In this document: one piece after another, positions 4,993 through 37,195 of the stretch | Position numbering within the stretch: the stretch's first letter is position 1 | How the letters are laid out: every line of letters begins with the position of its first letter | Source of the DNA: a virus | Lineage: Duplodnaviria > Caudoviricetes | Direction: 5' to 3' (one strand) | Virus record (IMG/VR): IMGVR_UViG_3300046534_000888 | Location: 1-56,018 of that record | Length of the DNA: 56,018 nt | Notes under the pieces: generated by a model | What the model was told of the DNA's origin: nothing | Database searches by the model: none | The model's input: only the letters and a program-made list of their open reading frames with translations | Made by a program: the position numbers and the translations under genes

Positions 4993-5068
4993 TGGTGCCG
5001 CAGTGAGGATTCAAACCCCAGACATCTTCATTACAAGTGAAGCGCTCTATCAACTGAGCTACAACGGC
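4993..5068 (-). tRNA. tRNA-Thr(UGU)
   Basis: CTTCA-CTTGTAA-TGAAG; CCA. Confidence 0.9.
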
Positions 5069-5108
5069 AGAGTTCGTCGTTTTTAAATTGGTGACCAACA
5101 CCCAATAT

Positions 5109-5227
5109 ATCGTTTGGTTGGACTCGAACCAACGTCCCACGGTTGCGGATTTACATTACCATATCAAAGAGGAATCGAACCTCAAATACCCTCGCACCGC
5201 TGTAATAACCACTATACGACAAACAAC
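5109..5227 (-). ncRNA. tRNA body with anticodon loop replaced by an insert carrying a second T-arm
   Basis: Acceptor TTGTTTG/CAAACGA, D-loop AGTGGTTAT, T-arm GTTGG-TTCGAGT-CCAAC; insert GAGG-TTCGATT-CCTC...GATATGGTAATGT. Confidence 0.65.
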
Positions 5228-5261
5228 AATTTGGCATCCCCGATAGGACTCGAACCTACAT
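5228..5261. repeat. 34-bp duplication of the tRNA-Arg(UCU) 3' end (att-like)
   Basis: aatttggcatccccgataggactcgaacctacat identical to 5468-5501. Confidence 0.95.
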
Positions 5262-5262
5262 T

Positions 5263-5430
5263 TTATTTTTCCATTTCTTTGGTTAGAATTTTAACCAATT
5301 CTTCTTCGACATCCATACCGTAAGTATACTCTAATTCCTGTATAGTTTCGACTTTCCAGGTTCCTCTCAACTTACGTTTGAATCCAAAAAATACTCTCAA
5401 TCTGTTATATATTTTATATATAAAATTCAT
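5263..5430 (-). CDS. 55-aa protein resembling a segment of T4-type major capsid protein gp23
   Basis: Hand translation MNFIYKIYNRLRVFFGFKRKLRGTWKVETIQELEYTYGMDVEEELVKILTKEMEK; resembles gp23 R.LKA.(Y/W)..E..QDL...HG.D.E.EL..IL..EI. Confidence 0.65.
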   Translation of the reverse strand: MNFIYKIYNRLRVFFGFKRKLRGTWKVETIQELEYTYGMDVEEELVKILTKEMEK

Positions 5431-5471
5431 ATATCTGATTCTCTCAAGTTTGTAATATAATTCCTAAAATT

Positions 5472-5548
5472 TGGCATCCCCGATAGGACTCGAACCTACA
5501 TGTGTCCGGTTTAGAAGACCGGTGCCTATCCAGTTAGACTACGAGGAC
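5472..5548 (-). tRNA. tRNA-Arg(UCU)
   Basis: CCGGT-CTTCTAA-ACCGG; CCA. Confidence 0.9.
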
Positions 5549-5563
5549 ATAATAACCTTCTTT

Positions 5564-5594
5564 TTGCACAGTAACAACATGAGTGTTACTGTGC
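5564..5594. terminator. 12-bp hairpin (terminator or processing signal)
   Basis: tgcacagtaaca...tgttactgtgca. Confidence 0.45.
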
Positions 5595-5605
5595 AACATT
5601 TAATT

Positions 5606-5708
5606 TGGGAGATGCACACATTAGGACTTAACCCCAACAGAACCGATTGTGTAGCTACCCAATTGGTTTCCAAGACAGGCCCGCACCTCACCTGTGATGT
5701 TTGTTCCT
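5606..5708 (-). pseudogene. degenerate tRNA-Ser(GGA)-like gene
   Basis: Loop TTGGAAA, long extra arm, broken acceptor and T stems. Confidence 0.45.
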
Positions 5709-5737
5709 TTAACTCGTCAGCAAAGGATTTCTAAAAT

Positions 5738-5820
5738 TGGCCACCTATGAGATATTCGAAATCTCCTTATCAAGTTGTTGATCAAGACACCCTGACGACC
5801 AATGCCACTACTGGTAGGTG
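5738..5820 (-). ncRNA. tRNA-like RNA, no clear anticodon
   Basis: CACCTAC/ATAGGTG-G-CCA; T-arm GAGAT-TTCGAAT-ATCTC. Confidence 0.6.
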
Positions 5821-5827
5821 TTAAAAA

Positions 5828-5916
5828 GGAGGTGCCTATGAAATATACGATATTTCGTTGCCGCGGGCATTCGGTCCCGTGATCGTCAACCCGAATCAAG
5901 TATCGGATAGGCGCCG
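5828..5916 (-). ncRNA. tRNA-like RNA related to 5738-5820
   Basis: GGCGCCTAT/ATAGGCACC stem; T-like arm GAAAT-ATCGTAT-ATTTC. Confidence 0.5.
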
Positions 5917-5921
5917 TTATT

Positions 5922-5998
5922 TGGCTCCCTGACGTGGGCTCGAACCACGGACAATCGCATTAACAGTGCGGCGCTCTACCAAACTGAGCTATCAAGGA
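5922..5998 (-). tRNA. tRNA-Asn(GUU)
   Basis: TCCTTGA/TCAGGGA-G-CCA; loop CTGTTAA. Confidence 0.92.
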
Positions 5999-6017
5999 AT
6001 AAACTTTAAATGCATTT

Positions 6018-6103
6018 TGGCTCCAAGAGTAGGGGTCGAACCTACGTTCCTATTGGAAGACTCTGATTAACAGTCAGGCACATTACCACTCTGTCATCTT
6101 GGA
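6018..6103 (-). tRNA. tRNA-Asn(GUU) with long variable arm
   Basis: TCCAAGA/TCTTGGA-G-CCA; CTGA-CTGTTAA-TCAG; V-arm TTCC-AATA-GGAA. Confidence 0.85.
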
Positions 6104-6116
6104 CCAAAATGCACTT

Positions 6117-6602
6117 CTATCGAAGTGCTGGGTAAACGTAATCACAATTCCACCAAATGTAATGGTTAAGATTGTTATCAGTATCACCATCTAAATGTCG
6201 AATATGGTGTTGCAATTCGTGCCGAAGAGTTTGTTTCCATTCGGTATCGAAATGACGACCAGTCGCGACGACAATTTTAAAATCAACGAAGTGATATGTT
6301 CCCCAAACGTCACCATTGGTGTGACCTGTGGCATATGATTCGAAACTAACAACATCGCGGAATTCGATTTGAACCTGCATATCGTATTCCATATCAACAC
6401 ATTCTTTGACAGCACGCCATTCATAATCAATGATGGCCGCCAATTCTGCGTCGGTTTTCTTATTACTGTTATTGACAATCTCTGCCCCAACATAAGGACT
6501 TGTCAACCCTGCATAAGCATTGGCAGGTTGATCGTCGGGAACACCACAAGCCGATATCGACAAAGCGAGAATCAGAGTGGAACCTAATTTATTAAGTTTC
6601 AT
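6117..6602 (-). CDS. lipoprotein with HExxH zincin-like motif
   Basis: Lipobox LSISAC; TLRHELQHH. Confidence 0.7.
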   Translation of the reverse strand: MKLNKLGSTLILALSISACGVPDDQPANAYAGLTSPYVGAEIVNNSNKKTDAELAAIIDYEWRAVKECVDMEYDMQVQIEFRDVVSFESYATGHTNGDVWGTYHFVDFKIVVATGRHFDTEWKQTLRHELQHHIRHLDGDTDNNLNHYIWWNCDYVYPALR

Positions 6603-6814
6603 GATAGTTCAATAACCTGATCATATTCATCGTCTTCATAATCACCGAGATCGTCTTCGGCAATACATTCACCGTCACCATTTGTGAACTGAAGACATAC
6701 GCAATATATGTGTTCATTGTATTGACCATGGTCGGCAAACATTGTGACGGCAAGATCACCTTTGCCTTCATCAATGAGTTCTTGTAATTTGATAATCAAA
6801 TCTTTCGCTTTCAT
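6599..6814 (-). CDS. hypothetical protein
   Basis: Acidic 71-aa ORF, ATGA overlap with next gene. Confidence 0.75.
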   Translation of the reverse strand: MKAKDLIIKLQELIDEGKGDLAVTMFADHGQYNEHIYCVCLQFTNGDGECIAEDDLGDYEDDEYDQVIELS

Positions 6815-6821
6815 AATATAG

Positions 6822-6938
6822 TTACCTTTCTTTCACGTTGAACTTCGATTTACCCTTGCGGGTGTAATCCTTTTTCTTATCACGCATCACAACAGACTTG
6901 TTGTATTTACGAGCATGTTTTGCCACGGGGTTATTCAT
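6822..6938 (-). CDS. small basic protein, ArfA-like C-terminal motif
   Basis: Hand translation MNNPVAKHARKYNKSVVMRDKKKDYTRKGKSKFNVKER; AGGAGAGG RBS. Confidence 0.65.
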   Translation of the reverse strand: MNNPVAKHARKYNKSVVMRDKKKDYTRKGKSKFNVKER

Positions 6939-6961
6939 AAACCTCTCCTAATGTTCTTACA

Positions 6962-7135
6962 AGGTGCGGTTGGTTTCGAACCAACTACAAGGGGACTAAT
7001 CCTTGACTTAGAATAAGGGCTCATTGGTAGTCCGATCCAATTACCGTTTATTCTTTTTGTGCCACTGAAATCGATAGTCCACCTAGACTAGGGTCTGGCG
7101 ATGTTTCAATTCCTTACACTTTTCTTTTCGCACCC
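6962..7135 (-). ncRNA. multi-domain tRNA-like RNA with complementary GGACTA/TAGTCY loops
   Basis: Acceptor GGGTGCG/CGCACCT and T-arm GTTGG-TTCGAAA-CCAAC enclose three hairpin domains. Confidence 0.65.
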
Positions 7136-7278
7136 TGTAAAAACACTGTGTCGTGTGAATCATAGTTTCCGCAGGATAACCATTGGACTTATTGATATTA
7201 ACCACGACCGAGTATTATTACTTTGTACATTCTAATTTATTGAAGATCAATCATCCGAGGAACACTCGAACGTTTTTC

Positions 7279-7441
7279 TATTTCTTATACATGTATTATA
7301 ACATGTTTTAAAACCTTTGTCAACAACTATTTCTAAAGAGTTAATTGAAATCGATAGTCCACCTAGACTAGGGTCTGGCGATGTTTCGATTTCTTATACA
7401 TGTATTATAACATGTTTTTAAACCTTTGTCAACAACTATTT
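7279..7441 (-). repeat. tandemly duplicated early promoter flanking a 42-bp copy (7346-7387) of 7066-7107
   Basis: atttcttatacatgtattataacatgtttt.aaacctttgtcaacaactattt occurs twice. Confidence 0.9.
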
Positions 7442-7714
7442 GACATTTATTTCTAAAGAGTTAAAGGATACATTGTATGCCTTAACTTCGTAACCTGATT
7501 CCCTAAAAGCACTATAAGCATTCTTATGGCGTTTAGCAAATTCATAAATAGTCTCGAGGTCATCAAAATCGATGCAATAAAACTCTCGGTCTCTATGACC
7601 TAACTCGATGTTTAGATCGCCATCACCATCAACGACGATATCGTTCGTAGTCCCAGGCACCAACTTGTCAAAGGGTATAGACTGTTCCAATTCCCTTTCT
7701 TCGTTAAAATTCAT
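7436..7714 (-). CDS. hypothetical early protein
   Basis: Directly downstream of early promoter cassette. Confidence 0.75.
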   Translation of the reverse strand: MNFNEERELEQSIPFDKLVPGTTNDIVVDGDGDLNIELGHRDREFYCIDFDDLETIYEFAKRHKNAYSAFRESGYEVKAYNVSFNSLEINVK

Positions 7715-7722
7715 AATATGCG

Positions 7723-7821
7723 CTTCTCAATTAATTTATACATGTATTATATCACGGTTATCGTGGTTTGTCAACAACTATTTCATAATTAGTTCGTATA
7801 TCGTTAGAACTTTTAGTTATA
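7723..7821 (-). promoter_or_regulatory. early promoter cassette (representative of about 24 copies) with upstream TATAACTAAAAGTTCTAACGATATACGAACTAA box
   Basis: TTGACA-17-TATAAT-ACATGTATAAATTAATTGAGAAG. Copies near 1986, 4723, 7286, 7395, 7983, 9090, 11494, 11850, 15649, 19081, 20518, 24188, 25896, 26960, 30793, 33430, 34927, 36117, 38625, 41376, 43668, 47850, 51232. Confidence 0.9.
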
Positions 7822-7823
7822 TT

Positions 7824-7899
7824 TGGTCCTCAATGGAAGAATCAAACTTCCCTCTATCGGTTATCAGCCGATTGTAATCAATCAATATACTAATTGAGG
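7824..7899 (-). tRNA. tRNA-Ile(GAU)
   Basis: CCTCAAT/ATTGAGG-A-CCA; ATCGG-CTGATAA-CCGAT. Confidence 0.88.
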
Positions 7900-8061
7900 G
7901 TTGCGCCGGACTTGCATCAATCGGAATCGATCAAAGCCGTGTATTGCCGGTCATACCTAAATCCCTTCGTTTCCTAATTCCTATACATGTATTATATCAC
8001 AGTCCATGTACATTGTCAACCTTTTTCTTATCTAATTGCGACAAGTTTTGTTCTATTTGCG

Positions 8062-8128
8062 ACACCCTCATAGCTTGATTCTAGCAGGGTTATCCCCTTC
8101 GAGCTATATAGCATTCAGTGTAAGCAGT
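8062..8128 (-). ncRNA. two-copy structured motif (other copy 41453-41517)
   Basis: ACTGCTTACACTGAATGCT identical in both; shared AGGG..TAACCYTGCT hairpin. Confidence 0.5.
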
Positions 8129-8130
8129 CC

Positions 8131-8160
8131 AAAAAAAACCCCGAACAAAGCCGGGGTTTC
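8131..8160 (-). terminator. intrinsic terminator of attenuator 2
   Basis: AAACCCCGG-CTTTGT-TCGGGGTTT followed by U-tract. Confidence 0.9.
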
Positions 8161-8184
8161 TGTGTTTTTGAATGGAGTTTTACT

Positions 8185-8292
8185 TCACATTCCACATAGC
8201 CCCGTGATAACCATACCACTCACTCTCGCCCAATTTCCGCGATTATTAATCGTCGGATATTGCGATATAAACTGTGATTGAATTGAAGTCAT
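8185..8292 (-). CDS. putative attenuator leader peptide 2 (35 aa)
   Basis: MTSIQSQFISQYPTINNRGNWARVSGMVITGLCGM between late promoter TATAAATA (8320-8327) and terminator; contains CGGGG antiterminator strand. Confidence 0.75.
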   Translation of the reverse strand: MTSIQSQFISQYPTINNRGNWARVSGMVITGLCGM

Positions 8293-8322
8293 GATGCTCT
8301 GTTTAATTGGTTATACGTTTAT

Positions 8323-8997
8323 TTATACAAGTTGTGAACTGTTACTTGAACTATTTTTCATTTTTTTTCGTCCAAATCCCAATCCTACAAGTCCTGCACC
8401 GAACAAAGCAAAGGTTGCAGGTTCGGGTACTTGTGCTACTGGTTCACATGTTCCTTGATTAATTGCGAAGTTACCAAAACCCCATTCCAATGGGTCCAGT
8501 GTTACTGAGCTAATGTGGGAACAATCACCAACGGTATTACTAGTTGAATGGAAACTGAATCCTGGGGTATTATTTCTACTAACATTAAACCATTCTCGTT
8601 CAGATATAGTTCCAGAGGTTTCCGCGACTGTTAACCAAGCATTATCTCTAATCGTTCGCAAGTTCGCGCCGACATTCAATGAAAAGGCGAAGGTGTTTTC
8701 TGGCATGATCAAAGTTATTATATTTTCATTTGTTATGAAGACTTCATAATCCTGACCCGGCGCTGTATTAAACCAACTATTGTCGCTAGCCAATTCCTCA
8801 TCCATTAATATAACTGGAAGTCCCCCCGACAAATCACCGTAGCGAAAGGCACTTTCATCGAATTCAAATTCGGACATGGTATAACCGCCGATGGTTGAAG
8901 GGATTACGGTTTCAGTGGAATATTCCGAATGTATTAATTGGGCATGAGCACCGAAACTCATTGTTATCATTAAAAGAAAAGCTGTTATATATTTCAT
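8323..8997 (-). CDS. PEP-CTERM sorting domain protein
   Basis: Signal peptide (...GAHA) and C-terminal VPEPATFALFGAGLVGLGFGRKK. Confidence 0.9.
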   Translation of the reverse strand: MKYITAFLLMITMSFGAHAQLIHSEYSTETVIPSTIGGYTMSEFEFDESAFRYGDLSGGLPVILMDEELASDNSWFNTAPGQDYEVFITNENIITLIMPENTFAFSLNVGANLRTIRDNAWLTVAETSGTISEREWFNVSRNNTPGFSFHSTSNTVGDCSHISSVTLDPLEWGFGNFAINQGTCEPVAQVPEPATFALFGAGLVGLGFGRKKMKNSSSNSSQLV

Positions 8998-9140
8998 AGT
9001 TTATCCTGTTTGTGGTATTATTTATACTAAAACTTAGTCAATATTGACTGTATTACTGTGATGGATATCACAATTTGTTTACATGAACCATTATAACAGG
9101 TTCTGTATCGTTTGTCAACAACTAATTAGTTTTAATAATT

Positions 9141-9249
9141 GTTGACAAGACTGTGTAGTTATGATATAATAACTAAGTCGTGCCGAGGCAGGTTGGTATA
9201 CCATAATTATCTAGTATGATACAACCCGAAGGGTTCCCCGAAGGGGTGA
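9141..9249 (+). promoter_or_regulatory. plus-strand sigma70 promoter driving a non-coding G-rich RNA (copy 1)
   Basis: TTGACA-17-TATAAT then aactaagtcgtgccgaggcaggttggtat; repeated at 51281-51350. Confidence 0.7.
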
Positions 9250-9804
9250 TCATTTAAGCTTTGGTTTACCAAATACCGATTCACGTACAACTTCACTCTT
9301 TCCAATCTTTCTATCGTATTCCAAATCATTCACCATATCAAGATCAGTGGTGTTAAAGAGCTTTCTGAGGAAGGCTTCATCGGTTACAATAGGTGCTCGG
9401 GATTTGTTCAATATGTGTTGCATCGCTCCATTAGCTTCAATCCACCAACCACTTTTCGTCAACAGTGTATTAATCTTCTTAATGACCTTGGTTTTGCTTT
9501 CCTTTTGTCCGTCATGACCAATACCTTGGATTTTATTACCTTTCCAACTCTCGTTTGATCTTGATGTACGATAGAACACGACAACATCAAGATCATCATC
9601 TTTGTCCCAATCTAAAGCAACCCAATCACTTGGTAATACATCACTTGAATTGTTGATAAAGCTACCAAGAGTGGTGCCTTTGTATGCGGTTTGCACTAAT
9701 TGAATCAGTTCAGGGCTGAATGATTTCTTGTCGGAAGTTGTGAGGAATTCCCAAGAGTTCTTCTTTAGGGATAATTCTTTCAGATACTCTTTATATGTTT
9801 TCAT
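9250..9804 (-). CDS. hypothetical late protein with capsid-targeting-like N-terminus
   Basis: Starts MKTYKEYLKE just after TATAAATA (9810-9817); the longer ORF start lies in a tRNA. Confidence 0.8.
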   Translation of the reverse strand: MKTYKEYLKELSLKKNSWEFLTTSDKKSFSPELIQLVQTAYKGTTLGSFINNSSDVLPSDWVALDWDKDDDLDVVVFYRTSRSNESWKGNKIQGIGHDGQKESKTKVIKKINTLLTKSGWWIEANGAMQHILNKSRAPIVTDEAFLRKLFNTTDLDMVNDLEYDRKIGKSEVVRESVFGKPKLK

Positions 9805-9828
9805 ACAGTTATTTATAACTATAGAAAA

Positions 9829-9911
9829 TGGTACGCCGAATCGGATTCGAACCGATAAAGGTCTTGCGTTTGAAGCAAGTAGCTGTGCCAATTTACATTA
9901 ACCACCGGCGC
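9829..9911 (-). tRNA. tRNA-Leu(CAA), short variable arm
   Basis: CTTGC-TTCAAAC-GCAAG; enlarged D-loop. Confidence 0.85.
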
Positions 9912-9919
9912 TTAACCTT

Positions 9920-10138
9920 TTAAACTGTCTCTGTGCGTGCCTGTTCGATCAAAGCAATGTGCTTTCTAATCCACCGCATGAATAGAATAGCCTTGTCTTG
10001 GGCGTTCATAGCTGCCGTACCAACGTCATTTGTGGGAACGGGAAATTCAAACCCACATTCAGTTGTATACCATAACTCATCTTCCTTGAAGAAGAGGAAT
10101 GTCACTTTCTTGTTTTTGATCATATCTTTGATATTCAT
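9920..10138 (-). CDS. hypothetical protein
   Basis: 72-aa ORF with AGGA RBS. Confidence 0.8.
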   Translation of the reverse strand: MNIKDMIKNKKVTFLFFKEDELWYTTECGFEFPVPTNDVGTAAMNAQDKAILFMRWIRKHIALIEQARTETV

Positions 10139-10160
10139 AATATTTCCTGTATTGTTATAA

Positions 10161-10289
10161 TTTGACCACGGGCTTCAACTCCGCAACCCGAAACAGTGAT
10201 CGTATCACTTCTTTAAGGTAGTCTTGCAAGTGTTTAAGATTATGAGTCTTTACTTACTTGTTCAATCTATGCTTACGCATTTGGTCAAA
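10161..10289 (-). ncRNA. candidate structured RNA inside tRNA cluster
   Basis: Closed by tttgacca/tggtcaaa with internal hairpins; no ORF. Confidence 0.35.
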
Positions 10290-10292
10290 ATT

Positions 10293-10369
10293 TGGTGGAA
10301 TGCCGCGGATTCGAACCGCGATCAGCCGGAGTAAGAGTCCGGTATAATTGCCATTTATAATAGCATTCC
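10293..10369 (-). tRNA. tRNA-Lys(CUU)
   Basis: CCGGA-CTCTTAC-TCCGG. Confidence 0.9.
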
Positions 10370-10374
10370 ATATT

Positions 10375-10457
10375 TGGTAGGCAAGGAGGGAGTCGAACCC
10401 TCAAAGGTCTGGATTTTAAGTCCAGTAGCTGTACCAATTTACATTAACCACCTGCCC
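10375..10457 (-). tRNA. tRNA-Leu(UAA), short variable arm
   Basis: CTGGA-CTTAAAA-TCCAG. Confidence 0.85.
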
Positions 10458-10463
10458 ATAATT

Positions 10464-10546
10464 TGGTACGTCGAGAGGGATTCGAACCCTCAAAGGTCTA
10501 GTGTCTAAAACTAGTAGCTGTGCCAATTTACATTAACCACCGACGC
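10464..10546 (-). tRNA. tRNA-Leu(UAG), short variable arm
   Basis: CTAGT-TTTAGAC-ACTAG. Confidence 0.85.
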
Positions 10547-10570
10547 TTAATCTTTTATGTCAACATTTTA

Positions 10571-10837
10571 TTAAAATTGTTTACTGGCCTGTCGGATAAT
10601 CCGAACAAATGTTTCCAGTAAATCTGTATCATTCAATAATTCGAAATGTATACGCTGCGCTTCACTTAAATGTATTGCTGTTGCCTGATGTTGCTTACGC
10701 TCTTTGTTACTGCAAAGCAGTTTAATACCAGTATCGTCAATGTAATAATTCTGCCATTGCATGGTTTCTTTAGAAAAGAGCCCCAGTAATTTTATTTCAT
10801 ACAGGATTTTGTCGTACATTATATCACGCATGTTCAT
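10571..10837 (-). CDS. hypothetical protein
   Basis: Start moved to MNMRD (AAGGA RBS); longer start overlaps tRNA-Glu. Confidence 0.7.
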   Translation of the reverse strand: MNMRDIMYDKILYEIKLLGLFSKETMQWQNYYIDDTGIKLLCSNKERKQHQATAIHLSEAQRIHFELLNDTDLLETFVRIIRQASKQF

Positions 10838-10863
10838 AATCTTGTTCCTTAATTGCATAAACT

Positions 10864-10937
10864 TGGTACACCATAGGGGAGTCGAACCCCTCTTCACGGA
10901 TTGAAAACCCGTTGTCCTACCGATAGACGAATGGTGC
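10864..10937 (-). tRNA. tRNA-Glu(UUC)
   Basis: ACGGG-TTTTCAA-TCCGT. Confidence 0.9.
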
Positions 10938-10944
10938 ATAAACT

Positions 10945-11020
10945 TGGTGGGCCCACGGAGATTCGAACTCCGATAACCGGATTAAAAGTCCGGGATAATT
11001 GCCCTTTATATTATAGGCCC
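10945..11020 (-). tRNA. tRNA-Lys(UUU)
   Basis: CCGGA-CTTTTAA-TCCGG. Confidence 0.9.
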
Positions 11021-11025
11021 ATATT

Positions 11026-11116
11026 TGGTGCAGCGCCTGGGGTTCGAACCCAGAGTGGGAGTTTCCTCTCGCCGGATTAAAAGTCCGGTACCTTCAGCCA
11101 ATTCGGTCAACGCTAC
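11026..11116 (-). tRNA. tRNA-Lys(UUU) with long variable arm
   Basis: CCGGA-CTTTTAA-TCCGG plus V-arm GAGAG-GAAA-CTCCC. Confidence 0.85.
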
Positions 11117-11122
11117 GTTGTT

Positions 11123-11197
11123 TGGTGTCTCTGAAGGGAATTGAACCCTCTACTCTTGGGTGAAAGCCAAGCGATCTAACCGGTAATCCACAGAGAC
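11123..11197 (-). tRNA. tRNA-Glu(UUC)
   Basis: CTTGG-CTTTCAC-CCAAG. Confidence 0.9.
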
Positions 11198-11216
11198 ATA
11201 TTCTTTAAATTTATTT

Positions 11217-11292
11217 TGGGGTGCAGCTTGGGTTTCGAACCCAACCCTCATGAGTCACAGTCATGCATGCTTCCAGTTACACCTGCCGCACC
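11217..11292 (-). tRNA. tRNA-His(GUG)
   Basis: G-1/C73; CATGA-CTGTGAC-TCATG. Confidence 0.9.
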
Positions 11293-11317
11293 CCAAAATA
11301 AACTTTTCTTCTCCCAT

Positions 11318-11350
11318 AAAAAAACCCGCATTAGGAGAATAATGCGGGTT
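11318..11350 (-). terminator. intrinsic terminator of attenuator 1
   Basis: AACCCGCATTA-TTCTCC-TAATGCGGGTT followed by U-tract. Confidence 0.92.
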
Positions 11351-11377
11351 AAATAAGCTTCTTATTGTCAGTTATTA

Positions 11378-11455
11378 TTAGCTGAAGCTTACCATTCCCG
11401 CGCATGATTTCTCATGCTTCTCGAGTTGTTCTAGTTTTAGTAATAATGTTTTCAT
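11378..11455 (-). CDS. putative attenuator leader peptide 1 (25 aa, Leu/Lys/Glu/His-rich)
   Basis: MKTLLLKLEQLEKHEKSCAGMVSFS, triple TAA; 5 nt after TATAAATA (11461-11468); GCGGG antiterminator strand. Confidence 0.8.
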   Translation of the reverse strand: MKTLLLKLEQLEKHEKSCAGMVSFS

Positions 11456-11460
11456 GTGTT

Positions 11461-11522
11461 TATTTATACAAGTTAATTGTTTAATGTGTAACTATTATAA
11501 CATAGTTTCGTGTGTTTGTCAA
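11461..11522 (-). promoter_or_regulatory. tandem early (TTGACA-17-TATAAT) and late (TATAAATA) promoters of the tRNA cluster
   Basis: attataacatagtttcgtgtgtttgtcaa and tatttata on + strand. Confidence 0.85.
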
Positions 11523-11555
11523 CCTTTTTCTTTCTTTTTCTTAGGGCCCATTATT

Positions 11556-11843
11556 TCACCTATTTAACGTAGGGTTTGACCAACCTGTAAAGTCCTTACA
11601 GAATGTCACAGTTATATCGATATGCAAGGAATGCAGTGCTGCCAACTCCAAGAATACTTCAAAATCGAATCCTTGCCGTGTAGTGTTGTCTGGTTCCATC
11701 AATACAATACCATCAAGATAATTCTGACCTTCCAGAGTACCCCATAGTAAATTGATCAATTCGAACACTCTACTATAGTTTCGTTGTAATAACGAGTCAG
11801 GGAATTCATCAAAGAATTTGTCAGGTATATTTAATGTTTTCAT
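11556..11843 (-). CDS. hypothetical protein
   Basis: LLWG...YL...RQGF..EV..EL pattern recalled from proteobacterial hypotheticals. Confidence 0.7.
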   Translation of the reverse strand: MKTLNIPDKFFDEFPDSLLQRNYSRVFELINLLWGTLEGQNYLDGIVLMEPDNTTRQGFDFEVFLELAALHSLHIDITVTFCKDFTGWSNPTLNR

Positions 11844-11855
11844 GTATACATTATA

Positions 11856-12053
11856 TCATGTATCGATGGGCTTGTCAACCTTTAATTTAGGGTTTTTCGA
11901 ATTAAATCCTGCTCGCCACCCTTCCATGAAGATCTTGTAATCAATCGACCTTTGCTTGCTTTCCTTTGTCTCATGCCATCCACGCCAAAGTGTGGTCGTG
12001 TATGATCGACAAGGCGGTGGTGGTGGTGGGTTAGGTATCGTCACGCTTATCAA
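11856..12053 (-). CDS. hypothetical Pro-rich protein
   Basis: ORF track; abuts neighbours. Confidence 0.55.
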   Translation of the reverse strand: MISVTIPNPPPPPPCRSYTTTLWRGWHETKESKQRSIDYKIFMEGWRAGFNSKNPKLKVDKPIDT

Positions 12054-12811: not shown

Positions 12812-13114
12812 CTATTTATAATTTTTGAAACGTACAATCCCCAAGTGAGTCAACTTATTAACCATACCCACGATCATTATATGTAAACGAGCATTAAAGA
12901 ATCGCCGCACAAGATAACCACGGATAATACTAAGCACAGTGAAAAGTGCGACAATGCCCCAATGTTGAGTCGAGGTGAATTCCATGCCTAAAACCCAAGC
13001 GATGATAGGCCATGCACCCAAACCTACAAGGAACCCGATCACTGTATTGGTAATAGTCTCAAGCAACGATACAAGTTTGCTTTGATTTTCGATATAAACG
13101 TCTCGTTCACCCAT
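12812..13114 (-). CDS. small membrane protein
   Basis: Two hydrophobic segments. Confidence 0.7.
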   Translation of the reverse strand: MGERDVYIENQSKLVSLLETITNTVIGFLVGLGAWPIIAWVLGMEFTSTQHWGIVALFTVLSIIRGYLVRRFFNARLHIMIVGMVNKLTHLGIVRFKNYK

Positions 13115-18850: not shown

Positions 18851-19060
18851 CTATTGTAGGAAAATTCCAATTGGGCTGCCCGATGTAACAGGACCTGCAG
18901 GACGAATATCTTTCTTTTGGGCCCAAGTCTTGGTTAATGATTCATCTTCGAACCACCCGATGGTGACTTCGTTAGCACTCATTTCAGTGATTTCACCAAA
19001 AGACGAGGCAATCATCATTCCCCAAACCCCCTTAACTTTCGTTCCAATTTCAATTTTCAT
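18851..19060 (-). CDS. hypothetical early protein
   Basis: First ORF after early promoter cassette. Confidence 0.75.
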   Translation of the reverse strand: MKIEIGTKVKGVWGMMIASSFGEITEMSANEVTIGWFEDESLTKTWAQKKDIRPAGPVTSGSPIGIFLQ

Positions 19061-19184
19061 AATATAGGCTTCTCAATTAATTTATACATGTATTATATCA
19101 TGGGTGTCTGGGTATGTCAACAACTATTTCAAAATTAGTTCGTATATCGTTAGAACTTTTAGTTATATGTCGAGTTCTCGACAC

Positions 19185-21724: not shown

Positions 21725-22951
21725 TTAACCCTTCACATTAATAACTTGATTCAATCGATATTTGATCTCAACTAAATCATCCTGTGCCGCCATTACAGCA
21801 CCTATATCTTTGTATGCTGCAGGACTTTCGTCAATCACATCAGCATCAAGTCGTGCTTCGATTCCCTTCATTGCGGTTGCATGATCATCCATGGAGATCA
21901 CTTTCTTAGCTTCGGTTCTTGACATAACCCGACCTGCGCCATGTGAACAACTACAGAAAGATTCCTTGCTACCCAGGCCTTCCACGATGAATGAGCCAGT
22001 ACCCATTGAACCTGGGATTATTCCCATATCACCAGTACGAGCACGCACAGCACCTTTTCTTGTCACCCATACATTAGAACCAAAATGATTCTCTTGGCTG
22101 ATATAGTTATGGTGACAGTTAACTGCACTATTCACAATTTGGAAATCGGTAAGATGCTTTCTTAACACACCCAACACAGACTCCATCATCAGTTCACGAT
22201 TGATTCGAGCGAAATCTTGTCCGAATAAAACCGCGTCAACATAGTCATCGAATATTTCAGTGCGTTCGACCAAATAGGATAAATCCTTATCTGGTAAGTA
22301 ACTATCGATATGATATCGCTCCATTTCTCTTTTTGCTTTGTCAATGAAATACATACCAATTCTGTTACCAACACCTCGTGAACCCGAGTGCAACATAACC
22401 CACACACTGTCGTTTTCGTCAAGACAAACTTCGATGAAATGGTTGCCAGTACCTAACGTACCAAGATGCGCCATTGTATTGAATGCTTTCGCTTTTGGGT
22501 GCTTCCCTATAATCTTATCATATCGATCGGACAATGAATTCCATGCTGATATGTGACTAACAGGTGATTTACTACCCCAACCGCCCTTATCATTACGACC
22601 ACCATTGTCGCTTCGACCGTGAGGTATCATCGATTCAATATGTGTTCGAATGTTATGAAGGTTATCTGGTAAGTCAGACGCGGTTAATGTAGTTTGTACT
22701 GCCATCATTCCGCAACCGATATCAACACCGACCGCGGCAGGAACAATAGCTCCTTTTGTCGCGATAACAGAACCGATTGTAGCGCCCATACCCCAGTGTA
22801 CATCAGGCATTGCAGCCACATGCTTATGAATGAATGGCAACTTGGCAATATTATGCAATTGCTCACGTGCTCTATCGTCTAATAAAACACCTTTTGTCCA
22901 ATGCTTGATTGGTGAACCATCAGTTTCTTCATATATAAAATTAGTTTTCAT
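21725..22951 (-). CDS. rtcB: RtcB RNA-splicing/repair ligase
   Basis: MPDVH.G.G, VGVDIGCG, GTLG.GNHF.E, HSGSRG, HHNY, IPGSMG, SHGAGR, DESP.AYK. Confidence 0.97.
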   Translation of the reverse strand: MKTNFIYEETDGSPIKHWTKGVLLDDRAREQLHNIAKLPFIHKHVAAMPDVHWGMGATIGSVIATKGAIVPAAVGVDIGCGMMAVQTTLTASDLPDNLHNIRTHIESMIPHGRSDNGGRNDKGGWGSKSPVSHISAWNSLSDRYDKIIGKHPKAKAFNTMAHLGTLGTGNHFIEVCLDENDSVWVMLHSGSRGVGNRIGMYFIDKAKREMERYHIDSYLPDKDLSYLVERTEIFDDYVDAVLFGQDFARINRELMMESVLGVLRKHLTDFQIVNSAVNCHHNYISQENHFGSNVWVTRKGAVRARTGDMGIIPGSMGTGSFIVEGLGSKESFCSCSHGAGRVMSRTEAKKVISMDDHATAMKGIEARLDADVIDESPAAYKDIGAVMAAQDDLVEIKYRLNQVINVKG

Positions 22952-34620: not shown

Positions 34621-34905
34621 CTAGTAGTAATAACGTCGAGTGTCGTCAGTGTTCTCAAAGTTCCAACGACCAACCGCATCATTGAACTCATGAACTCCGA
34701 CAGTTGTGCCGAAACGAGATGATTCCATCGACTTGGCGTCGAGGTAATTGAAGCCAGAATAATTACCAGATTCATGTAGAACAAATTCAAGAGCGGCACA
34801 TTGACCGCGGCGCATTTCAACTTGATCATCCATGCCGTGAACCAAGCTGTGGTTGATCGAATCTTTAAGAGCTTGGACATTGAAGGTTTTGGTTTTTCTG
34901 GTCAT
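34621..34905 (-). CDS. hypothetical early protein
   Basis: LE.VLH.SGNY.GF.YL. Confidence 0.8.
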   Translation of the reverse strand: MTRKTKTFNVQALKDSINHSLVHGMDDQVEMRRGQCAALEFVLHESGNYSGFNYLDAKSMESSRFGTTVGVHEFNDAVGRWNFENTDDTRRYYY

Positions 34906-34919
34906 AATATAGGCTTCTC
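34878..34919. repeat. 42-bp direct repeat (other copy 35253-35294)
   Basis: cattgaaggttttggtttttctggtcataatataggcttctc = RBS plus first 9 codons MTRKTKTFN. Confidence 0.92.
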
Positions 34920-34984
34920 AATTAATTTATACATGTATTATATCACGGTTATCGTGGTATGTCAACAACTATTTCAGAATTAGT

Positions 34985-35233
34985 TCATATATCGTTAGAA
35001 CTTTTAGTTATACGCGGCGTTTCGATGAATTCCTGTCTTTCGCCCTTTATCCATTCCCATACTGATGGTCTGTTCCATAGTCCTACCAATTTAGTATGAT
35101 GGGTAAAGGTGCTATTGGCCTTATCGCCGCAACGAGGACAGACGCCTTCAGATGAATGCCATTCATCTTGGTTTAACCATTCCCCAGTAGTTGGACAGAT
35201 TTTGACACTGCTATAATTGGTATCTAGTTCCAT
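34985..35233 (-). CDS. hypothetical Cys-containing protein
   Basis: CP.TG...CPRCG. Confidence 0.65.
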   Translation of the reverse strand: MELDTNYSSVKICPTTGEWLNQDEWHSSEGVCPRCGDKANSTFTHHTKLVGLWNRPSVWEWIKGERQEFIETPRITKSSNDI

Positions 35234-36415: not shown

Positions 36416-36639
36416 TAGTATTTTCCTAGGATAGGGCACGAGAGTTCGGCCAGTTCGATCTTCAATTGGATGATTTCATGCATTTTGGTTTGTTCGACGC
36501 GAAGGCCGCCAATTTCGACACTCATTGTCTGTAGTTCCTGATTCTGTTCATAATATCCATACCCGAAAAGGGCTGATAATATAACAAACACCACCATTGG
36601 CTTCTTGACTAACAATTCTATTATGTCTTTATATTCCAT
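36415..36639 (-). CDS. late membrane protein
   Basis: After TATAAATA (36662-36669); hydrophobic segment plus coiled coil. Confidence 0.75.
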   Translation of the reverse strand: MEYKDIIELLVKKPMVVFVILSALFGYGYYEQNQELQTMSVEIGGLRVEQTKMHEIIQLKIELAELSCPILGKY

Positions 36640-36672
36640 AGATAACTCGAGGTTGTTCTATTATTTATAATA

Positions 36673-36985
36673 AGGTCACCTTGGGTAATAAGGCGTGACC
36701 AACCTCAGATGGAGCCTAAGCCGCCATCATGTAAACGTTGTCATTTGCGTTTATATTTTTCTTATCTTTTAACGTGAATAACCACGCATTGTCAGTTTAT
36801 CTTCGGGACGATATCGATTCCAAGTCATCCCCATCAAAAACACTTTTATCATCTATCCCCGATGACTTCAGCCCAAAGACATAACGTTGTGTCTATATTG
36901 GGTTAGCTCGACAGCAAGAGTGCTTATGGTGGAGATGGCGGGATTCGAACCCGCGTCTACCGACCTATTTTCTACTTCATACAAT
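36673..36985 (-). ncRNA. ssrA: circularly permuted (two-piece) tmRNA
   Basis: Acceptor piece GCGGG-TTCGAAT-CCCGC-CATCTCC-A-CCA (ends 36927) precedes coding piece starting GGGGATG (36832); G3-U70; tag ANDNVYMMAA* at 36716-36748. Confidence 0.92.
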
Positions 36986-36994
36986 GATTTAAAA

Positions 36995-37195
36995 CTATTT
37001 CTCTTGATTTAAAACCATTTCTTTGATGTCACACGAACCACGAACCCAAGGAATACCTTTGGTTCTGAGACCTTCCATTGTGTATTCAGGGTTATGGCCT
37101 CGTTCAGGGTTACGGCCTCGATATTCAGTCTCACCGACCATGATCTTATGACCATTTTTAAAACTTCTTTCTTTCTGATTCATCTGATTCATCAC
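36995..37195 (-). CDS. hypothetical protein
   Basis: ORF track. Confidence 0.65.
   Translation of the reverse strand: MMNQMNQKERSFKNGHKIMVGETEYRGRNPERGHNPEYTMEGLRTKGIPWVRGSCDIKEMVLNQEK

Follow-up and report, generated by a model that had tools for sequence, protein, structure and literature searches.

The window analysed here is the whole 56,018-nucleotide (nt) stretch of the IMG/VR viral contig IMGVR_UViG_3300046534_000888, which comes from a T4-like phage, has a completeness estimate of 28% and carries all of its long open reading frames (ORFs) on the minus strand. The phage encodes a split topoisomerase II, a ribonucleotide reductase, an ATP-dependent ligase and RtcB, the window holds 24 tRNA genes and a tmRNA gene, and its gp52-like protein shares at most 43% identity with cultured Aeromonas T4-like phages. 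We focus on a module at positions 8333-8128, located on the minus strand between a gene for a PEP-CTERM protein and a repeated promoter cassette that leads to a tRNA-Ile gene and the downstream tRNA region (Table 1). A sequence-only reading had presented this module as the second attenuator of the window, in which a motif resembling the late promoters of T4 (TATAAATA), a 35-codon ORF, an extended hairpin and a terminator would together gate late transcription of the large tRNA block. All of these elements are present on the minus strand, with the coordinates and sequence strings given for them, and the description of the anatomy as attenuator-like was right, but each element stands out from chance only modestly.

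Table 1. Features of the module, of its surroundings and of the two leader regions compared with it (positions in the window unless a contig is named).
Feature	Position	Strand	Remarks
PEP-CTERM protein gene, 224 aa	8323..8997	-	Pfam PF07589, E = 2.6e-7
17-nt element with the T4-late-promoter-like TATAAATA (8327-8320)	8317..8333	-	identical to 11474-11458
35-codon ORF plus TGA stop	8185..8292	-	coding status doubtful
Extended hairpin, antiterminator candidate	8152..8205	-	CGGGG 8205-8201 pairs with CCCCG 8156-8152; two inner helices
Intrinsic terminator: stem-loop 8159-8136 plus eight U (8135-8128)	8128..8159	-	-12.1 kcal/mol
PeSL-type repeated promoter cassette	7967..8128	-	begins directly past the U tract; repeats in the window and in relatives
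tRNA-Ile (GAT), first gene past the cassette	7824..7899	-	Rfam tRNA, 55.9 bits
Attenuator 1	11474-11316	-	promoter 11522-11494, TATAAATA 11468-11461, 25-codon ORF, antiterminator, terminator 11350-11323
G006 tRNA leader	L085 14604-14358	-	promoter, 18-codon ORF, three alternative hairpins, 13-bp stem plus short U tract

With its 9-bp stem of five to six G-C pairs, 6-nt loop and eight T, the stem-loop at the end of the module has the make-up of a Rho-independent terminator, and in the 54 kb scanned the coding strand has just one other strong terminator, that of attenuator 1. Its exact 22-mer has no match among viral contigs. Between this terminator and tRNA-Ile, 91 nt upstream of the tRNA gene, lies a promoter at 8019-7991 that matches TTGACA-17-TATAAT at all 12 positions and carries a TG extension (extended -10), and five more 12/12 promoters are found within the downstream tRNA region (7774, 7432, 7323, 4760 and 2023). 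With one perfect promoter intervening and five others inside the region, the proposal that the module gates the tRNA block could not be upheld.

The stretch 8128-7967 qualifies as one of the PeSL cassettes of T4-like phages, which Arbiol et al. 2010 (PMC2839356) and Comeau et al. 2014 (PMC4122927) describe as combined terminator and promoter units by which accessory genes are insulated and shuffled, and whose stem-loops they propose to terminate or attenuate upstream transcription. As in the cassettes portrayed in the two papers, near-perfect TTGACA-N17-TATAAT promoters stand in a sequence of at least 100 bp that is repeated through accessory regions, a stem-loop of a G-run and a C-run lies within the cassette, and the cassettes flank variable ORFs; contigs G008/G009 differ in entire modules located between cassettes. 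A 19-mer of the -10 region (7982-8000) has eight other exact copies in the window, and PeSL-like cassettes are common to the window and to the related contigs G007-G011, five contigs that were recovered by a scan for this 19-mer; the cassette is present in four of these five, with modules that differ among the relatives. The first nucleotides of the cassette (8128-8110) recur once, at 41517-41499, directly past the stop of the topoisomerase large-subunit gene, and in G009 and G007 the cassette likewise stands directly past ordinary stop codons. Unlike in the PeSL arrangement, the terminator with its eight U (8159-8128) is not part of the repeated cassette and occurs at this junction alone, whereas the other copies that were read adjoin stop codons without such a terminator. 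Two further observations concern the window in general: the family of PeSL-like cassettes with perfect extended -10 sigma-70 promoters also includes the stretch 7704-7814, which is repeated at 34902-35012, 19056-19168 and elsewhere, and three scans gave a total of 25 perfect 12/12 promoters on the minus strand.

A comparison at the syntenic site is provided by G008/G009, a true relative of the phage by virtue of 79% amino-acid identity in gp52 and synteny in tblastx. There its order is a homolog of attenuator 1, one IscA-like gene, the cassette directly past the stop of that gene, and then a match to window positions 7293-6825; the relative lacks tRNA block 1 together with the PEP-CTERM gene, the 35-codon ORF, the terminator and tRNA-Ile. 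Neither the module 8333-8128 nor its ORF has a homolog in phage records, in viral contigs or in the five related contigs. The comparison of open frames at homologous loci that the sequence-only reading had called for therefore finds no homolog to work on and, at the syntenic site of G008/G009, a junction without the module, and neither the ORF nor the alternative pairings display the conservation that a leader-peptide attenuator should have.

Upstream of the module, the PEP-CTERM gene ends with a TAA stop codon at 8325-8323, which the TATAAATA motif overlaps, and it is preceded by its own perfect sigma-70 promoter (9118-9090) and by a further TATAAATA at 9026-9019. Its protein has homologs in a metagenomic protein (43% identity) and in a metagenome-assembled genome of Gammaproteobacteria (56% over residues 89-195), and the gene in the latter has, as read from the sequence, its own terminator about 30 nt past the stop codon. 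Morons, as characterised in PMC2839356, are accessory genes of phages that come with a promoter and a terminator of their own. The PEP-CTERM unit resembles them in its bacterial-type gene, its own sigma-70 promoter, its factor-independent terminator and its absence from the closest relative, and differs in being embedded among the PeSL cassettes of a T4-like accessory region and in having late-promoter-like motifs too. The presence of the gene implies a host with an exosortase system; in a literature search on PEP-CTERM and exosortase, none of the papers listed contained the term 'phage-encoded'. The phage protein has a signal-peptide-like N-terminus and about nine additional C-terminal residues, which extend into the TATAAATA element. 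The region 9090-9170 holds a divergent pair of perfect sigma-70 promoters, one at 9142-9170 on the plus strand and the other being the minus-strand promoter 9118-9090, with no plus-strand gene evident.

Since the terminator is canonical, a repeated cassette follows directly past its U tract, the downstream genes have independent promoters and the module is absent in the relative, we hold with moderate confidence that the module is the terminator closing the PEP-CTERM accessory unit and insulating the PeSL-type promoter cassette that follows. The stem-loop 8159-8136 with its eight U would then act as a strong Rho-independent terminator at the end of a moron-like unit made up of the promoter 9118-9090, the late-type TATAAATA at 9026-9019, the PEP-CTERM gene and a trailer of 163 nt between its stop codon and the terminator. 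Early and late transcripts from upstream would be halted there before they reach the next module, a PeSL-type cassette whose own promoter at 8019-7991 would transcribe tRNA-Ile and the genes beyond. The 35-codon ORF would be no codon-sensing leader and would either remain untranslated or be a trivial late small ORF, while the extended hairpin would be a structure of the trailer that is largely compatible with the terminator. We infer that termination takes place in vivo and that regulation is absent.

The motif at the head of the module is promoter-like, and we regard it as a candidate T4-type late promoter. In T4, according to PMC1524935, TATAAATA occupies positions -13 to -6 of late promoters and is recognised by gp55. 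The window contains 12 copies against 5.1 expected, a count that none of 100 shuffles reaches; the coding strand carries 10 of them, and both in the window and in relatives the motif is common just before ORF starts. At 12820, 11468 and 9817 of the window (all on the minus strand), and at several sites of relatives (L103, L105, L107), it is followed by an ATG after exactly 5 nt. If the T4 rule for the position of the motif is applied to these sites, the A of the ATG is at +1, which suggests leaderless late mRNAs in this lineage.

The 35-codon ORF bears few marks of a gene. We scored codons by log-likelihood as in-frame versus out-of-frame usage of 49 long genes; the ORF scores -0.19 per codon, under all 35-codon windows of these genes (mean +0.38 per codon) and lower than 67-83% of 184 non-genic ATG ORFs, and its codon usage is non-genic. 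Its Shine-Dalgarno duplex is weak, at -2.1 kcal/mol, with 24% of the 49 genes equal or weaker. The peptide has no homolog in 50,697 phage records (tblastn), in the five related contigs or in PHROGs, and a comparison with 1.84 billion protein representatives gave four matches, all to repetitive proteins of 853-3587 aa. In the surrounding region, 71 ORFs of at least 30 aa overlap positions 5000-12000. A plus-strand gene in the same place (ORF 8036-8281) was ruled out, as every gene is on the minus strand and this ORF matches no family.

More persuasive leader regions exist elsewhere. In attenuator 1 no promoter separates the terminator from tRNA-His, 31 nt further on, and the promoter at the head of this leader is perfect. 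Its antiterminator (-21 kcal/mol, z = -4.0) is reached by none of 400 shuffles. The eight tRNAs that come next can decode 12 of the 25 codons of the ORF (background 0.221, P = 0.004), a level attained by one of 393 small ORFs. In the homolog of attenuator 1 in G009 (L100 2190-2048, minus strand), which precedes the IscA-like protein gene and not tRNAs, the frame is open, its length changes are multiples of three as read from the sequences, and a hairpin of different sequence stands at the same place; a pattern built on attenuator 1 matches G008/G009 only. In G006 the leader hairpin lies 6 nt before the first tRNA block (Met-Ile-Lys-Cys-Glu), again with no promoter between, the tRNAs of that block match 10 of the 18 leader codons (background 0.198, P = 0.0009; one of 120 small ORFs reaches this), and 0.3-0.5% of shuffles equal the antiterminator. 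With 60 nt upstream, 0-0.7% of shuffles attain the values of the G006 leader, of attenuator 1 and of the counterpart of the latter in G009, whereas three control terminators show no such departure from chance. A terminator-like hairpin at most 70 nt upstream was found for three of 48 tRNA blocks in six loci and for none of the 25 tRNA blocks in four cultured T4-like phages (Vibrio D484, Aeromonas PS49, Erwinia COW86c and Enterobacter MY742), and leader-terminators before tRNA blocks are therefore not a general T4-like trait. The likeness between the module and attenuator 1 that had been claimed thus stands for the form, which is also that of the G006 leader, namely a small ORF whose last codons copy the 3' arm of the terminator, a hairpin enclosing the stop codon, and the terminator; the module is without three telling properties of these leaders: direct adjacency to tRNA genes, a strongly non-random antiterminator and enrichment in cognate codons. 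Attenuator 1 and the G006 leader look more attenuator-like than the module 8333-8128.

The attenuators of amino-acid operons (trp, his, leu, thr, pheA) consist of a short ORF, alternative hairpins and an intrinsic terminator, and a ribosome at the leader stop masks the antiterminator strand. The module follows them in the order of ORF, hairpins and terminator and in the placement of the stop codon. An attenuator mediated by ribosomes without codon specificity is an alternative that we consider unlikely. A late transcript starting at about 8314 would have its ORF translated, and a ribosome at the UGA would mask the 5' strand of the hairpin so that the terminator forms, whereas with slow, stalled or absent ribosomes the hairpin would hold CCCCG and allow read-through into the cassette and the tRNAs; late tRNA output would thus climb as decoding capacity drops. 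The geometry is fitting, as the UGA (8187-8185) lies in the loop of the hairpin that competes with the terminator, with CGGGG 14-18 nt before it, and a terminating ribosome would therefore free the 5' arm of the terminator. The extended hairpin is the minimum-energy fold of 8215-8152, and the nascent structure, at -16.2 kcal/mol, is more stable than the terminator and is equalled by four of 200 shuffles, or 2% (z = -2.2). Upstream pairing of the 5' arm of the terminator gains -8.7 kcal/mol, a value reached by 1.5% of 400 shuffles when 60 nt of upstream sequence are allowed and by 8.3% when 90 nt are. The architecture is moreover found in three clearly non-random cases, namely the G006 leader, attenuator 1 and the homolog of the latter in G009, and the enrichment of TATAAATA on the coding strand, usually just before ORF starts, fits a late transcript of this kind. 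On the other side, competition is confined to the outer pairs, five of the nine of the terminator stem, which lets the inner helices exist alongside the terminator. At equilibrium the terminator prevails, forming with P = 0.98 when 100 nt of upstream sequence are included and with P = 0.63 when 153 nt are (4.5% of shuffles give a value this low). Pairing of the 5' arm ahead of synthesis of the 3' arm is no likelier than in shuffles, and the weak Shine-Dalgarno duplex, the non-genic codons, the lack of conservation and the closest relative without the module all speak against the same reading. The module also departs from the amino-acid operon attenuators in several ways: it lacks both a run of regulatory codons and a clear pause or anti-antiterminator hairpin, its antiterminator contests just part of the stem, a strong promoter stands between the terminator and the supposed targets, and these are tRNAs, not biosynthetic enzymes. 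With a perfect promoter past the terminator, read-through would add little unless early promoters are shut off.

What set the sequence-only reading apart was its codon-specific version, in which a leader sampling many isoacceptors would open the tRNA block upon shortage of tRNAs for Ser, Ile, Asn, Thr or Gln and not of those for Leu or Lys; we judge this version highly improbable. The codons it had named (ATA, ACG, TCG, CCG, CGC, AGA and TGG) are all in the ORF and their diversity is a true statement, but chance ORFs are no different. Downstream tRNAs can read 21 of the 35 codons, compared with a single codon of the 35 for the tRNAs of the other block (Lys, Leu, Glu and His), the ORF holds the rare codons CCG, CGC, GGG, ACG and CTA (each 9-12% of its synonymous family), and cognate codons are enriched in attenuator 1 and in the G006 leader. 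However, the cognate fraction is not significant (background 0.454, P = 0.06) and is equalled by 24% of the 393 small ATG ORFs of the window, and a non-coding frame would give rare codons equally. No tandem or clustered regulatory codons of any class occur within the ORF, its Gln, Gly, Ala and Trp codons (nine of 35) have no tRNA in the downstream block, the Asp tRNA of that block has no codon in the ORF, and promoters lie between the terminator and the tRNAs. It is also possible, if quite improbable in our estimate, that the module forms an independent short late unit of about 185 nt, running from the 8327-8320 promoter to the terminator and yielding a small protein or small RNA of its own. 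Small stable RNAs are located in the tRNA region of T4. The unit is bracketed by a promoter-like motif and a terminator, its 17-nt element matches the start of the small ORF unit of attenuator 1, whose reading frame remains open in G009, where indels come in multiples of three, and the fold of 8330-8120 has a z of -2.19; yet z becomes an unremarkable -1.13 once the terminator is included, Rfam (E up to 1) gives only tRNAs and sub-threshold noise over 7000-12000, no peptide or DNA homolog is found, and the codons are non-genic. A broader view, which we regard as very doubtful for this module, would count it among a few ribosome-sensing leader-terminator switches that tie tRNA transcription to decoding capacity in a marine T4-like lineage: slow or stalled ribosomes on a short ORF would leave the antiterminator intact and late transcripts would reach the tRNA genes. 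The better-supported members of such a set are attenuator 1 and the G006 leader, with ORFs rich in codons of the tRNAs that follow.

Several observations weigh against the simpler interpretation of a terminator at a unit boundary. The 17-nt stretch around TATAAATA is identical to the one before the small ORF of attenuator 1 (11474-11458), and only 4.5% of 5000 shuffled versions of the 163-nt spacer contain an ATG ORF of at least 35 codons. The depletion of codons for the tRNAs of the other block is matched by 1.3% of the 393 small ORFs. The trailer of 163 nt is long in comparison with the approximately 30 nt of the bacterial PEP-CTERM homolog. Sequestration of the terminator arm beats 92-98.5% of shuffles and exceeds that of three ordinary gene-end or tRNA-end terminators of relatives, which 17-79% of shuffles equal, and the architecture of a small ORF and a terminator also occurs at two sites directly before tRNA blocks.

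For the comparisons above, relatives were sought along several routes. The TARA scaffold L084 is 99.87% identical to the window over 6672 bases, which marks the phage as marine; positions 8128-8333 are without any change in it, and the second copy is therefore uninformative for comparison. The sole differences over these 6.7 kb are a 7-nt insertion at 10159, just upstream of the start of a 72-aa ORF, and substitutions at 7720 and 7728, near the start of a 92-aa ORF. A metagenome scan for relatives returned the same phage (L084) only, queries of viral contigs with the PEP-CTERM protein and the neighbouring 184-aa ORF returned no relatives, and a query with RtcB returned 306 matches, the top ones being unrelated 42-66 kb phages without the locus. 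The gp52-like query gave one distant relative, G006 (gp52 57% identity), without the PEP-CTERM gene, and blastn of 7400-9200 against phages gave tRNA-Ile matches only, in 13 records.

The tRNA genes of the window and their neighbours also offered some observations of their own. The stretch 9829-9922 on the minus strand is 84% identical to the tRNA-Leu(TAG) gene at 10464-10557, is not called by ARAGORN and scores 21.3 bits in Rfam as a tRNA against a threshold of 29; it is likely a decayed tRNA copy. Two tRNAs on the minus strand are unusually long for their class, tRNA-Lys(TTT) at 11026-11116 with 91 nt and tRNA-Asn at 6018-6103 with 86 nt, and may contain an insertion or intron. The tmRNA gene (36625-37019, minus strand) has the tag ANDNVYMMAA, and the gene for the RNA ligase RtcB is at 21725-22951 on the same strand; together with the large tRNA set, these two are a translation-repair toolkit of the phage.

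If the module 8333-8128 is a mere terminator at a cassette junction, it is routine, yet it neatly illustrates how a host-type gene acquired by T4-like phages, here that of a PEP-CTERM protein, is insulated from the promoter cassette next to it. In the collection of papers that we searched in full text, no report of leader-peptide control of phage tRNA genes was found. Attention accordingly shifts from this module to attenuator 1 and the G006 leader. Should an attenuator reading prove true, it would mean translation feedback on phage tRNA genes and would bear on the question of why large phages carry tRNA sets, and such switches could be an inducible answer to the depletion or cleavage of tRNAs.

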